Positions 37,091 to 55,157 of a stretch of DNA of 64,000 nucleotides are shown piece by piece. The stretch is from Candidatus Micrarchaeota archaeon (GTDB lineage Archaea; Micrarchaeota; Micrarchaeia; Anstonellales; Bilamarchaeaceae), in assembly GCA_043821365.1 (NCBI GenBank), contig JBDRCX010000006.1, positions 512,001-576,000 of the forward strand, given 5' to 3'. A model generated the notes under the pieces. The model saw nothing but the letters and a program-made list of their open reading frames with translations, was not told the DNA's origin and searched no databases. The translations under genes and the position numbers were made by a program. The stretch's first letter is position 1. Each line of letters starts with the position of its first letter.

Positions 37091-37256
37091 GCGACTTTTT
37101 AGGAAAAAGTCGCCCAAAAACTAGTTAAAAAAACTCATCCTTGAACAAAGTTCAAGGTGCAAATTGTTGCTCTGCAACAATTACGTGGCAAAAAACTAAT
37201 TTGCTATTTGGAAAAAAGGTAGCACCAAAAACTCATCATTAGTAAAATTGTGCCAC
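37091..37256. repeat. Free-standing intergenic array of hairpin modules related to the tRNA introns
   Basis: GCGACTTTTT-agg-AAAAAGTCGC, CCTTGAAC-aaa-GTTCAAGG, AATTGTTGC-tct-GCAACAATT, GTGGCA...TGCCAC; linkers CAAAAACTAGTT and AAAACTAATTTGCTA. Confidence 0.8.
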
Positions 37257-37286
37257 AAAAAACTGATTTATTATTTGGAATACCCA

Positions 37287-37685
37287 CTAATCGTCCATAC
37301 ATCTTTGATGTCCATTAGGGCATGTCATGCTAGTGTCATCATAGAATCCTTCATCATAATTAATGTCTATACTGGCTTCTTTTTCACAATAAAGTTTATT
37401 GCACTCGGGACAATAATAGTCAAGACCCATTTTCTGTATCCATTTTTCTCTTATTAATTTATGGATTTTCAGATAATTTTTTTCTTCAATCCATTTTTTT
37501 ACTTCTACAATATCCACTTCATTAATGGTTATTGATCTCAATGGACTATAAATTGTAAATTCATTTTCTCCAAATTTTATTAATACAATTTCCTGGCCAC
37601 AGCTATCACATTTTAGTCTGTAATCAGCTTCTATTTTTGCTAATTTTTTTCTATCCTGTGTTTCATCAAATGAAGTTACTCCCAT
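37287..37685 (-). CDS. Hypothetical zinc-binding protein
   Basis: CDSC, CPEC..YC and CPNGH motifs; likely start ATG 37685. Confidence 0.6.
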   Translation of the reverse strand: MGVTSFDETQDRKKLAKIEADYRLKCDSCGQEIVLIKFGENEFTIYSPLRSITINEVDIVEVKKWIEEKNYLKIHKLIREKWIQKMGLDYYCPECNKLYCEKEASIDINYDEGFYDDTSMTCPNGHQRCMDD

Positions 37686-37695
37686 TATTCCACCT

Positions 37696-37959
37696 TTATT
37701 TGAATGAAAGATACCACCTTTCATATTCTTTATGAGTTGCAAAACACCTTAAGATAAAAAGTCGATCATCTTCAACTTGGTAGACCAAACGCGATTGTTT
37801 GGTCACATTTACTACGTTAAAAGGCAATCCATACCGCATATGACGGCGAGTTGGCATATTAACTATCTTTTCTATGTGTTTTTTAAAATATAATCTAAGT
37901 TGCGCATCCATCTTACTAAGTTCTTCTTCAGCTAATTCTGATATGCGCACTTCAATCAT
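37696..37959 (-). CDS. RelE/ParE-family toxin
   Basis: 87 aa; IEVRISELAEEEL..., RLVYQVEDDRLFIL..H; downstream of an RHH gene. Confidence 0.75.
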   Translation of the reverse strand: MIEVRISELAEEELSKMDAQLRLYFKKHIEKIVNMPTRRHMRYGLPFNVVNVTKQSRLVYQVEDDRLFILRCFATHKEYERWYLSFK

Positions 37960-37963
37960 TTAA

Positions 37964-38221
37964 TCACATATGGTATTTTTTCTTTATCTCCTCAAAGCTT
38001 TTGGTTTTGATTTTACCAGATCTAATTTTTTCCATTTCAGATTCTATGCCTTTATTGACTAGATAAACCTCTTCCTCGCTTATGGCTCTGTCATATGCAA
38101 GTAATGCTTGACGAATCACCTCAGTCTGACTACCGGCATATCCTTTATTTATCAATTTTTTGATAATTATCTCGTATGGCTCTCCCAATATAATATTCAT
38201 ATCCACACCATAAACATTCAA
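37964..38221 (-). CDS. Ribbon-helix-helix antitoxin
   Basis: LINKGYAGSQTEVIRQAL RHH pattern; C-terminal ..SFEEIKKKY; 4 nt upstream of the toxin. Confidence 0.75.
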   Translation of the reverse strand: MNVYGVDMNIILGEPYEIIIKKLINKGYAGSQTEVIRQALLAYDRAISEEEVYLVNKGIESEMEKIRSGKIKTKSFEEIKKKYHM

Positions 38222-38262
38222 TGCACATTAGAGTTTATAAAGGATGTGTATTCACTGGTCAT

Positions 38263-39567
38263 TCAATGATCATTAAATAAATAACTTCCACAAAATTTCA
38301 AAAATTCATTTAGTTTTTCTTTTGGTATTGATGCACCTGCAGCAATTTTATGCCCACCACCAATACCACTAATTTCTAGAGTAGCTTTTTTCATCAAATC
38401 TCCAAGATTTAATCCATTTTCAACTAAAATTTTCGATCCTCTTCCAGAAACTTTTACTGTGTTATTGTCTCCAAGTGCAATTCCAATTATTGGTGTTGAC
38501 CATTTTTGCTGAAATGCCATCCCACAAACAGTTCCTATTATGCCCTCATCAATTTTTCCTCTTCCATCAAGAAAATGAAATGCACCAAAATTCTGAATGT
38601 TACCATGTGCATATTCAATTCCGCTTCTAAGCATTCTTCTATGGTGTTGTAGTAGTGCCTTTGCTTCTGCATATGCATCATGATCTCCTAAACAAACCCG
38701 TACTCCTATGTCTGGTTGGGAATGTCTGCCACATGCATTCAAAATTGTACTGAATTCGTTTGCTTCATATGTTTCATCTTTTGGTCGATTTGGAAAAATG
38801 TAACTTTCACCAACAAGTTCATTTACTTTTTTCAACTGCCCATAGTTTATCAGAATTTTTGCAAGTGCACTTATCAAATTTTTCCTTTCATTATTATTTA
38901 GATCAACATATTTCTTCCCTTCATGTTCAATTTTAAGTTCATTCAAAAGTTCAATTGCCTTATCTTCTCTATATGAAATTCCAGGTATGTAGGGGTCATC
39001 ACAGTAAGATAAAAACTGCACTAATTGTCTGCAGTATCTCCCATAAAATCTTATATCTTCTTCAATTGTAATTTCGCCTTTCTTTTTTCCATCTTCCAAA
39101 ACCCACCTATTCATACCAGAAAGCGGAGATTGCATATCACCGACTGCTCCAACAACTGCAACATCTGCCATCTCTCTAAAAACACAATAGGCAGTGGTTG
39201 CTGCACTTAATTCTGTGCCACCATCTATACCATATAATACTGGGTTAATCTGGACTTTTTCTATGCCTTCTGTTTGGTGATGGTCAATAACAATGACATC
39301 TTTCAATTCATTCACTCTTTTATTCCCGCCTCCAAGATCTACAAAAATTATTTCTTGTTCTTGTGAATAGCGCTCGATGGCAGCATCATCTAGTTTTTTT
39401 ATTGCCTCTCTTCTGAATTTTTGATTATTTTTCAAAAATGCTTTTGCAACTATTGCACCTGAACTTAATCCATCTGCATCATAGTGGTGAACAATGATCG
39501 GATCTTTGAATGAAAGAGCCAGTTTTCTAGCTTCTTCACATTTTTCTAAAAATTCAGGATGTTCCAT
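38263..39567 (-). CDS. RecJ-like DHH/DHHA1 phosphoesterase (GAN/HAN-related)
   Basis: HHYDADG, FVDLG, IDHH, VGAVGDMQ, GGGHKIAAGA. Confidence 0.92.
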   Translation of the reverse strand: MEHPEFLEKCEEARKLALSFKDPIIVHHYDADGLSSGAIVAKAFLKNNQKFRREAIKKLDDAAIERYSQEQEIIFVDLGGGNKRVNELKDVIVIDHHQTEGIEKVQINPVLYGIDGGTELSAATTAYCVFREMADVAVVGAVGDMQSPLSGMNRWVLEDGKKKGEITIEEDIRFYGRYCRQLVQFLSYCDDPYIPGISYREDKAIELLNELKIEHEGKKYVDLNNNERKNLISALAKILINYGQLKKVNELVGESYIFPNRPKDETYEANEFSTILNACGRHSQPDIGVRVCLGDHDAYAEAKALLQHHRRMLRSGIEYAHGNIQNFGAFHFLDGRGKIDEGIIGTVCGMAFQQKWSTPIIGIALGDNNTVKVSGRGSKILVENGLNLGDLMKKATLEISGIGGGHKIAAGASIPKEKLNEFLKFCGSYLFNDH

Positions 39568-54029: not shown

Positions 54030-54052
54030 TTAAATTTTCCTCCATTATTATT

Positions 54053-54436
54053 TTGGGGGATGATATGCGTGGGCAAATCAGTCTAGAATATCTTTTCATA
54101 TCTGTTATTTCTCTTTGTTTGATCTCAATATCTCTATTTTCCTTAATGGCAATCAGAGATTTTTCTATGAAGGCCATAGAGATCCTAACGTTCAAATTTT
54201 CTGTCTCAACACTTAGCAATATGATTGGTGAAGTATGTGTTATGGGAAACGGAAATTCACAATATCTTTATTTGAATAATCTGTCTGTTGAATCAGTAAA
54301 AGATGATTTTTGGATAGTGAGATTTAGTTCTGGCAACATGTCTATTGTGAAAAAAGCACTCTGCCAAGTAGAAGGAAAAGCAAATGGAGAAACACAAATT
54401 AAGAATGAAAATGGAATAATTATCCTATCAAACTAA
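54053..54436 (+). CDS. Class III signal peptide (pilin-like) protein
   Basis: MRGQISLEYL followed by a hydrophobic helix. Confidence 0.75.
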   Translation: MGDDMRGQISLEYLFISVISLCLISISLFSLMAIRDFSMKAIEILTFKFSVSTLSNMIGEVCVMGNGNSQYLYLNNLSVESVKDDFWIVRFSSGNMSIVKKALCQVEGKANGETQIKNENGIIILSN

Positions 54437-54460
54437 ATAACAAAGGAGATTCAAAAAGAT

Positions 54461-54509
54461 GGCAAGAACGTTGCGACGTTCTTGACTGTCTTGAAATAGG
54501 AATTTCAAG
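54461..54509. repeat. 49-nt twin-hairpin dispersed repeat, copy 2
   Basis: GGCAAGAA-N10-TTCTTG ACTGT CTTGAAA-N6-TTTCAAG. Confidence 0.8.
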
Positions 54510-54527
54510 TACAACCGTAGGTTCTTT

Positions 54528-54845
54528 TTATATTACAGTAAGCTTTCCAAATTTTCCTAATGTTAATTGGGCAGCTCCTTGCCATTCATTTACATAACCA
54601 TTTTCTATCTTTATCTTGTCTCCAGTTTTTACAGAATCTATCTGTTCATTCCATAGAACAAGAGTAACAGTTCCACTGTCATCCTTTATTGTTGCATTTC
54701 CAACTCTTAATTTTCTCCCGTATTTGTTAATTTCGCGTTCACTGTCCATAGAGACAACTTCGGCTTCGATATTAACACTGCCAGTTCCTGCCTTCAAATC
54801 TTTAATCTTCATACCACTACCTTCAGTTTCTTTCTTTTTTGCCAT
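54528..54845 (-). CDS. ssb: Single-OB-fold single-stranded DNA-binding protein
   Basis: KIKDL...VNI..V...IKDDSG.V.L.LW...GD.IKI.NGYV.EWQG..QL.LG..G. Confidence 0.88.
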   Translation of the reverse strand: MAKKKETEGSGMKIKDLKAGTGSVNIEAEVVSMDSEREINKYGRKLRVGNATIKDDSGTVTLVLWNEQIDSVKTGDKIKIENGYVNEWQGAAQLTLGKFGKLTVI

Positions 54846-54909
54846 TTTAATACTCTCCTTTTTTTGTTTGATGTGTGGGTCTAAGGGGGCGTGCCCCTTA
54901 AATAAACAA

Positions 54910-55157
54910 AGCCTCCGGAGGGGATTGAACCCCCGACTTCCTCCTTTCCCGCTTTTCGTAAAAGCGGGACCAAAACTAATTTGCTAATTTTTGCCCAAGG
55001 CAAAAATGGTAAACCAAAAAACCCTGGAGGGTTTTTAAACAATCAGTTTTGATCCAACTTTTTCTAAAAGTTGGTTACAAGAGAGGCGCTCTACCGTTGC
55101 ACGCCTTGCGGACAAATCTTTTACAGATCGCCGTGCAAGACTCTGAGCTACAGAGGC
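54910..55157 (-). tRNA. tRNA-Thr(UGU) with two introns: D-loop 15/16 (55097-55142, 46 nt) and canonical 37/38 (54946-55075, 130 nt)
   Basis: Spliced product GCCTCTGTAGCTCAGCGGTAGAGCGCCTCTCTTGTAAGGAGGAAGTCGGGGGTTCAATCCCCTCCGGAGGCT folds as a cloverleaf with U73. BHB-like junctions AG/A with AA/C, and UA/A with AA/A. Confidence 0.9.

Follow-up and report, generated by a model that had tools for sequence, protein, structure and literature searches.

How archaeal tRNA genes gain introns that are spliced by enzymes is an open question, and a 64,000-nt stretch of a Candidatus Micrarchaeota genome raises it in a form in which the moving part can be named and counted. The stretch, called the window below, covers positions 512,001 to 576,000 of contig JBDRCX010000006.1 (G000:C6:512001-576000, where G000 is the genome, 1.2 Mb long, 36% GC and 87% complete, and C6 is this contig); coordinates given without a contig are positions in the window. 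A sequence-only reading of the window had noted similar hairpin modules in intergenic DNA (37091-37126), in a tRNA-Val intron (42231-42260) and in a tRNA-Thr intron (54948-54981). It had proposed that tRNA introns and intergenic DNA have a dispersed palindromic family in common and that this family is linked to intron gain. All three modules are present at these positions, and they are copies of one repeat unit.

A hairpin-plus-tail repeat shared by introns and intergenic DNA

The unit is 30-45 nt long and consists of a variable outer stem of 3-6 bp, a constant CTTTT-NNN-AAAAG inner hairpin with a purine-rich loop, and a tail of the CCAAAAC type. The genome contains 54 units, counted by the inner motif (CTTTT..AAAAG) and the CAAAA tail only, against three matches to the reversed control pattern. 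Perfect hairpins of at least 7 bp with a T-run at the loop numbered 120 in the genome and 11 in a locally shuffled genome. Covariation was counted directly over the 54 units: the three positions outside the inner motif were Watson-Crick complementary in 94% of units, compared with 29-39% when the partners were shuffled, and all four pair types were used at the outer stem positions. Because these positions covary, the hairpin is under selection, as RNA or as single-stranded DNA. When the tail was set 3′, the loops were of the AGG/GG type in 45 units and contained C in five, and this asymmetry makes the unit an oriented hairpin-plus-tail.

Two inverted units flanking a two-hairpin core form a composite of about 125 nt, which is present at ten loci according to an nhmmer model made from five copies, the tRNA-Thr intron of the window among those five. 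The paired tails of the composite form a stem of 10-13 bp. At its two ends stand copies of the unit in inverted orientation, and as the inversion extends to the loops, the composite carries terminal inverted repeats. One and the same unit of about 43 nt makes up the 5′ end of a D-loop intron and, in inverted form, the 3′ end of an anticodon-loop intron.

The free unit of the window (37091-37121, + strand) comprises a 23-nt hairpin at 37091-37113 and a CCAAAAAC tail at 37114-37121, and lies between the start of the open reading frame (ORF) 35876-37030 (− strand) and the stop of ORF 37287-37742 (− strand). With the preceding nucleotide (37090-37121) it makes up a 32-nt sequence that recurs without any change, even in the variable stem and the loop, at C6:414561-414592, the end of an intron in a tRNA gene (C6:414502-414790) 135 kb away. 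Two shorter matches pointed out in the sequence-only reading are both exact and differ in weight. The 15-mer shared by 37192-37206 and 54972-54986 exceeds chance, since only 2 of 1000 dinucleotide shuffles of 37091-37262 shared a substring of at least 15 nt with any of four introns on either strand. The 11-mer shared by 37116-37126 and 42390-42400 is at chance level on its own, as about 16% of shuffles reached 11 nt.

These comparisons bear on the possibility that there is no family at all, and that A/T-run hairpins arise repeatedly, favoured by the endonuclease or by base composition. The AT-rich genome (36% GC) and the chance-level 11-mer would fit such an origin. The identities of 32 nt and about 43 nt, however, take in the variable outer stem and the loop, tail and core are conserved over about 125 nt, the ratio of observed to control units is 54:3, and subfamilies of nearly identical copies exist in two related genomes (G077 and G059). 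We therefore regard independent origin as extremely unlikely; both the 15-mer and the family as a whole exceeded the controls, and the proposal of one dispersed palindromic family common to tRNA introns and intergenic DNA was borne out.

The units are concentrated in stable RNA genes. The tRNA and 23S genes account for about 1% of the genome and hold 35 of the 54 units; four more units abut tRNA genes, and about 13-15 are located elsewhere. At least 20 tRNA genes have units in their introns, which lie in the D-loop, the anticodon loop or the T-loop.

Register of the repeat with splice sites

On unspliced DNA, tRNA-Gln was the sole tRNA of the window called by ARAGORN and Rfam; two more genes, tRNA-Val(CAC) (42193-42433, + strand) and tRNA-Thr(UGU) (54910-55157, − strand), were recovered by eye and by splicing in silico. 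Default tools thus detected one of the three tRNA genes in the window and about 20 in the genome (19 by ARAGORN, 18-26 by Rfam). Because standard tools miss such genes, tRNA-based completeness checks and annotation fail in these lineages. For tRNA-Val, removal of 42230-42281 and 42305-42420 joined the exons 42193-42229, 42282-42304 and 42421-42433 into a 73-nt product that ARAGORN calls tRNA-Val(CAC) and that agrees with intron-free orthologues adjoining the prolyl-tRNA synthetase (ProRS) gene in relatives. For tRNA-Thr, removal of 55097-55140 and 54946-55075 joined the exons 55157-55141, 55096-55076 and 54945-54910 into a 74-nt product that ARAGORN calls tRNA-Thr(UGU) and that agrees with the intron-free orthologues of three congeners (G138, G132 and G005). 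In both genes, removal of the predicted introns restores, in silico, a canonical mature tRNA.

Three of the four introns contain the repeat. Intron 1 of tRNA-Val (42230-42281, + strand, 52 nt) lies at position 37/38 in the anticodon loop and has a unit at its 5′ end, with the hairpin at 42230-42252 and the tail at 42253-42260. Intron 2 of tRNA-Val (42305-42420, + strand, 116 nt) lies at position 60/61 in the T-loop and holds one split unit with outer stem GTTC/GAAC and tail 42388-42395, which has an intact counterpart at C6:474700-474722. The A-run of this unit is interrupted by two nested palindromes, 42326-42346 and 42350-42381; the latter, 32 nt long and centred on GAATTC, has copies in the tRNA introns C6:642678-642715 and C6:321450-321483. 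The anticodon-loop intron of tRNA-Thr (54946-55075, − strand, 130 nt) is a full composite and the second-best match of the nhmmer model. Its terminal hairpins lie at 55074-55054 and 54969-54947, its inward tails pair as a long stem, and it has two inner hairpins. The D-loop intron of the same gene (55140-55097, − strand, about 44 nt, borders ±2 nt) is without a repeat unit.

To relate the repeat to splice sites across the genome, intron borders were fixed through the mature tRNAs of an intron-poor congener (G008) or through orthologues, and exons were found by BLAST and a spliced aligner. In all 18 units with fixed borders the part facing the exon was the hairpin, never the tail. The hairpin began at intron nucleotide 1-2 at 5′ ends or ended 1-2 nt before the 3′ splice site, which places it within 0-2 nt of the splice site in 18 of 18 cases. 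Because of this register, the repeat forms the ends of the introns and is not a passenger in older ones. The position of the hairpin is that of the intron-side helix beside the 3-nt bulge of the bulge-helix-bulge motif. Single units were found in either orientation along the transcript, with the hairpin next to the exon in every case, and a fixed transcript polarity for single units was thereby ruled out.

The register also bears on a proposal of the sequence-only reading, in which old tRNA introns serve a separate palindromic element as neutral landing sites. Nesting of palindromes in intron 2 of tRNA-Val, and in the terminal hairpins of tRNA-Thr introns of G043 and G139, is what such a use of introns would produce, and nesting in an existing intron does occur in the tRNA-Val case. 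For the repeat itself the proposal mainly does not hold, as units occupy the extreme ends of introns and keep a fixed register with the splice sites, and sister genomes lack any intron at several of the sites. In addition, the 29-nt D-loop intron of tRNA-Arg(CCU) (C6:418001-418029) consists of 1 nt, the hairpin, a 4-nt exon complement and 2 nt, which leaves little beyond one hairpin and the exon complement. As a general account, we consider the use of pre-existing introns quite improbable.

The predicted folds varied in how closely they approach the canonical motif. The minimum-energy fold of tRNA-Val intron 1 is a canonical bulge-helix-bulge structure (hBHBh′), with the anticodon stem, 3-nt bulges, a 4-bp H helix and a 9-bp inner helix. 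Intron 2 of tRNA-Val showed no canonical register in its fold. An H helix can form in the anticodon-loop intron of tRNA-Thr (four of four pairs, two of them G-U), although the terminal hairpin competes with it. To build the 4-bp central helix, a long intron would have to draw on the outer 3′ arm of its terminal hairpin. In other introns three to four of the four H pairs can form, and a local hairpin often replaces the long-range inner helix.

Enzymes that could act on such structures are encoded in the genome. A 393-aa EndA matches the epsilon2 endonuclease of ARMAN-2 (4FZ2), an enzyme of broad specificity, over its full length (E 3.5e-132), a second EndA-like ORF encodes 171 aa, and the ligase RtcB is present. 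The RtcB ORF itself (G000:C6:673872-676544, + strand) is 910 aa long, and its Pfam match is split by about 1.4 kb in frame, which suggests an intein.

Filled and empty sites in related genomes

The relatives of the ProRS gene in the window are from Micrarchaeota metagenome-assembled genomes, with a top identity of 85%. Among 14 relatives with tRNA-Val beside ProRS, the tRNA gene was intron-free in four. The same anticodon intron was found in three (L001, L005 and L017), was decayed in L015 and L016, and was absent from the nine other orthologues. Assorted introns occupied the D-loop in 6 of the 14, several of them beginning with the unit, and the T-loop intron was filled in none of the 14. The tRNA-Thr(UGU) gene beside its aminoacyl-tRNA synthetase neighbour was intron-free in G138, G132 and G005, and full-length homologues of its anticodon intron occupied the same site in G131 and G128. 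Elsewhere the intron at this site ranged from 35 to 150 nt and included full-length homologues, deletion derivatives and copies invaded by palindromes, the nested palindromes lying within the terminal hairpins in G043 and G139. In the 23S gene, an insert of 54 nt with a unit in G000 was longer in G096 and absent from G138, G005 and G004; a 7-nt direct repeat containing CATG bounds the insert in both genomes that have it.

Free copies showed a similar distribution. The free unit at C6:209946 belongs to an insert of about 72 nt that separates a stop codon from the ribosome-binding site that follows. It runs antisense to the genes on either side, and four congeners lack it. The free copy at C6:186924 is common only to G138 and, in part, to G131. 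The 1.2-kb segment 37091-38262, which begins with the free unit of the window and also contains a ParDE-like pair and a zinc-ribbon ORF, is missing from the closest relative, L001, which has the same flanking genes. The closest congener, G138, has 46 units yet lacks the insertions in tRNA-Thr, 23S and C6:209946. Orthologous empty sites in close relatives were thus found for tRNA-Val, tRNA-Thr and 23S, and comparison of these orthologous sequences shows that the intron gains by the repeat are recent. The polymorphism in length and presence of the tRNA-Val and tRNA-Thr introns, together with the empty sites in sister genomes, bears out the link between the repeat and intron gain that had been proposed from the window.

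The number of units varied widely. It ranged from 1 to 54 across one draw of 31 genomes of the genus, reached 101 in G096, and was near zero in G008, G004 and G132. The number of tRNAs detectable by Rfam tended downward as the number of units increased. The repeat extends beyond the genus: 27 units were counted in one further genus of the same taxonomic family, and 13-15 nearly identical copies in two genera that belong to a different one. In three genomes of another family of the order (G077, G059 and G026), the units fell into subfamilies with one fixed outer stem and 7-13 copies per genome, which look like recent bursts. Free copies, filled and empty sites in congeners, and lineages with bursts against lineages with almost no units and the same splicing enzyme make the question of intron gain testable in this group.

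Routes of spread and known systems

Taken together, these results suggest that the repeat is probably a non-autonomous, non-coding and recently mobile DNA repeat that becomes an intron when it enters the loop of a tRNA or rRNA gene and is made harmless by the splicing of its host. A unit or composite would insert as DNA into such a loop and would itself become the intron. Its hairpin would supply the intron-side helix beside the 3-nt bulge, the epsilon2-type endonuclease of the host would cut there, and RtcB would rejoin the exons. Insertions in essential RNA genes would be harmless and persist because the host endonuclease and RtcB would remove them from the transcript. Intergenic copies would be tolerated, decay, pile up as at 37091-37262, and be invaded by other palindromes. 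Insertion at the DNA level is favoured because the ends of the composite are inverted DNA copies, because the unit of about 43 nt occurs in both orientations at different intron positions, and because copies lie in untranscribed or antisense contexts, other palindromes are nested in the repeat, and no reverse transcriptase was found.

Several results weigh against this DNA-level account. All nine composites that could be assigned have the same polarity relative to the host transcript, so that random DNA insertion fits only through selection on the RNA fold; the sense fold, however, has the lower energy in only seven of the nine (summed −407 vs −377 kcal/mol). For the tRNA-Thr intron, a fold with the canonical H helix is 6.9 kcal/mol less favourable than one in which the hairpins are closed. 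This difference makes the real endonuclease substrate uncertain, and we rejected the canonical bulge-helix-bulge as the favoured fold of that intron. No transposase linked to the repeat was found among Y1_Tnp, TnpB and RVT_1, the families searched, other transposase families not being searched. Y1_Tnp occurred in 7 and TnpB in 17 of the 31 genus genomes, and neither tracks the number of units. A target-site duplication was seen only at 23S, with none evident at the tRNA-Val and tRNA-Thr anticodon sites or at C6:209946, and a general target-site duplication was not upheld. The palindrome TCGA occurs at the D-loop and T-loop sites, as the palindrome CATG does at the 23S site, so that a direct repeat cannot be distinguished there from an exon complement.

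The shared polarity of the composites would be expected if the spread took place at the RNA level, with excised introns ligated or reverse-spliced at bulge-helix sites, copied to DNA and recombined into the genome, much as the sequence-only reading had suggested with the re-integration of excised introns. The insertion sites, which are loops by helices of stable RNAs and also the outer foot of tRNA, RNase P RNA and signal recognition particle (SRP) RNA, and the slightly greater stability of the sense RNA fold are consistent with this route. Against it, no RVT_1 gene was found in G000 or in two unit-rich congeners (G096 and G098), the sole match being in a unit-poor genome. The two terminal units repeat each other as inverted DNA down to their loops; C6:209946 holds a free copy in antisense to the genes on both sides; the unit at 37091 is situated upstream of what is probably the promoter of the following gene; and a D-loop intron of G131 has core sequence in opposite polarity. 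Free copies as 5′-truncated retro-copies were ruled out, as the free fragments include both halves of the composite. RNA-level spread therefore appears quite unlikely to us, and the re-integration of excised introns was not supported. Alternatively, the module could be chiefly a functional processing signal, a conserved endonuclease site for introns, leaders, trailers and some mRNAs that is kept by selection and does not spread selfishly. Units lie 0-4 nt outside the 5′ ends of tRNA-Ala(GGC) and tRNA-His, the 3′ ends of tRNA-His and tRNA-Pro(GGG), and the terminal helix of RNase P RNA, where about 0.05 cases are expected by chance, and several free units stop directly at a ribosome-binding site, as a signal of this kind might. 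However, four congeners with one to five units (G004, G008, G132 and G007) share the endonuclease and process these RNAs without recourse to the module, and the copies are species-specific and decaying. We judge a processing signal unlikely as the principal explanation; processing use and mobility are compatible with each other.

The units at the feet of RNA genes may mean that structured RNA genes are preferred as targets at their foot, or that the units serve in end processing. At one of these sites, the whole interval from tRNA-Pro(GGG) to the ribosome-binding site of the following gene is taken up by a full composite. A promoter role of the hairpin was set aside, since at about 13 nt from tRNA 5′ ends it is not placed as a TATA box would be; a terminator role seems unlikely in view of runs of up to eight T inside tRNA genes. 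A common flanking tetranucleotide was not found among 10 free units.

A search for a HUH/Y1 transposase had been proposed from the window, and one such gene exists, although it shows no connection with the repeat. The single Y1 transposase gene of G000, IS200-like and 149 aa long (C3:96623-97072, within C3:96450-97190), is flanked by unrelated GC-rich hairpins, and Y1 was not found in G138, G131, G128 and G136, which hold 42-50 units. A Y1/HUH transposase was therefore rejected as mobiliser, on the grounds of its unrelated end hairpins and the lack of a phyletic link to the repeat. TnpB was rejected likewise, being unrelated to the unit counts, with its sole copy in G000 a remnant inside the window. 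That remnant is a TnpB-type zinc-ribbon domain (Cas12f1-like TNB; 41800-41997, + strand; ORF 41863-42147; the open frame is only 137 aa) wedged between tRNA-Gln and tRNA-Val, and it looks like what is left of an IS200/IS605-type accessory gene.

Among known systems, the transposition of tRNA introns in Thermoproteales (Sugahara 2008; Fujishima 2010) comes closest. As summarised in PMC4090602, its mechanism is still called unknown, and the 2026 Asgard census (bioRxiv 10.64898/2026.10.13.758758) found no route by which tRNA introns arrive. From the same two summaries, the features in common are recent gains among close species, a presumed spread at the DNA level and an endonuclease of broad specificity, and G000 likewise has similar introns at different positions of different tRNA genes (10 composite-like copies). 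Measured against these later summaries of the Thermoproteales, the present case concerns DPANN Micrarchaeota and an epsilon2 endonuclease; it has a nameable unit of 30-45 nt with hairpin and tail and a composite with inverted ends; copies are also present in 23S rRNA, next to the ends of mature RNAs and away from RNA genes altogether; and other palindromes nest in the repeat. Candidatus Micrarchaeum acidiphilum ARMAN-2, as far as it is described in PMC3239211 and PMC3488258, shares the endonuclease architecture, the many D-loop, anticodon-loop and T-loop introns, and T-loop introns in tRNA-Pro(GGG). The introns described there (PMC3239211) are short, however, at 13-25 nt, and a term search of that paper gave no occurrence of the word "hairpin", while 12 of its 21 matching passages, those considered here, make no mention of a shared repeat family or of intergenic copies. 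The flanks of archaeal 16S and 23S rRNA carry bulge-helix-bulge processing stems, and split and permuted tRNA genes are known (PMC7714728, PMC3218864). The units by tRNA-His, tRNA-Ala, tRNA-Pro and RNase P RNA share the leader/trailer topology of these stems, but here the flanks are copies of a dispersed repeat, and their cleavage is putative. A literature search found no description of the hairpin-plus-tail repeat.

Outside the field of introns, short palindromic repeats offer the nearest parallels: repetitive extragenic palindromic (REP) sequences and REPINs with their RAYT (Y1) transposases, and palindromes resembling miniature inverted-repeat transposable elements (MITEs), such as the Rickettsia palindromic elements. 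Like these, the repeat is short, non-coding and structured, occurs in tens of copies, some of them as inverted pairs, is lineage-specific and is sometimes located in genes. Unlike REP and REPIN sequences, it flanks no Y1 gene and does not co-occur with Y1 or TnpB, and unlike both groups its main niche is stable RNA genes, with predicted removal by host splicing. Palindromes derived from IS200/IS605 differ in three respects, since the hairpins are terminal here, Y1 does not co-occur and there is no fixed tetranucleotide among the 10 free units. The terminal inverted repeats resemble those of a MITE, but no related autonomous element was found in the searches for Y1_Tnp, TnpB and RVT_1, which did not extend to other transposase families.

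We tentatively go one step further and suggest that the unit could be a portable half splice site, although we hold this with less than even confidence. A selfish DNA repeat of this kind would make a bulge-helix beside any stable-RNA helix, could be cut there by the relaxed epsilon2 endonuclease, and would thus manufacture archaeal introns; copies at the ends of tRNA, RNase P RNA and SRP RNA may have been co-opted for end maturation. Group I and group II introns splice themselves, and a repeat that carries half a splice site would outsource splicing to its host. If this suggestion is true, it would provide the first concrete arrival route for archaeal tRNA introns.

The intergenic region of the window illustrates how copies accumulate. 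The segment 37091-37262 is a pile-up of one intact unit, a double-hairpin copy, a decayed hairpin and tails. The double hairpin (37139-37190, + strand), nested in the cluster, belongs to a second palindrome family of about 52 nt with copies at G000:C6:464807-464861 and G000:C6:411612-411661. The window copy is 95% identical over 39 nt to C6:464810-464848, which adjoins the SRP RNA gene, the third copy has covarying stems, and related double hairpins invade the terminal hairpins of tRNA-Thr introns in G139. Beyond it, 37189-37263 (+ strand) holds a decayed hairpin and tail-type fragments (37189-37206, 37226-37233 and 37256-37264), and the 15-mer in common with the tRNA-Thr intron sits within this part. 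Same-strand CA(4-7)CT motifs number four in 190 nt at the cluster against 0.06 expected, the maximum for the genome. Rfam returned nothing for 37091-37262 at gathering or E-value thresholds, and a hidden non-coding RNA under the element was ruled out by this result.

Additional observations concern the stable RNA genes and the neighbouring ORFs. The RNase P RNA (G000:C6:111786-112192; L124:287-693) scores 37.5 bits against a gathering score of 84, with an apparent hairpin-rich insert of about 95 nt right after the 5′ strand of the terminal helix and a unit 4 nt past its 3′ strand. The SRP RNA (G000:C6:464965-465223, − strand) scores 78.9 bits, under the gathering score of 96.5. It has a possible insert of about 80 nt near the 3′ end, flanked by a repeated GGAAGCCCA-type string and followed by a hairpin and a double hairpin. 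The 23S gene on contig C4 spans about 660 nt more than the model positions covered, and contains a weak match to a group I intron (L123:17781-17921; 29 bits, E 6.7e-4, below gathering). In G000:C1:44430-44560, which is downstream of a free unit, a TGATGA box is followed by a 15-nt string that occurs twice and ends in CTGA; this may be a C/D-box-like small RNA. Within the window, 37287-38221 (− strand) contains a zinc-ribbon ORF (151 aa) and weak ParE-like (87 aa) and ParD-like (85 aa) ORFs, and a single ORF of 4444 aa spans 21573-34907 (− strand).

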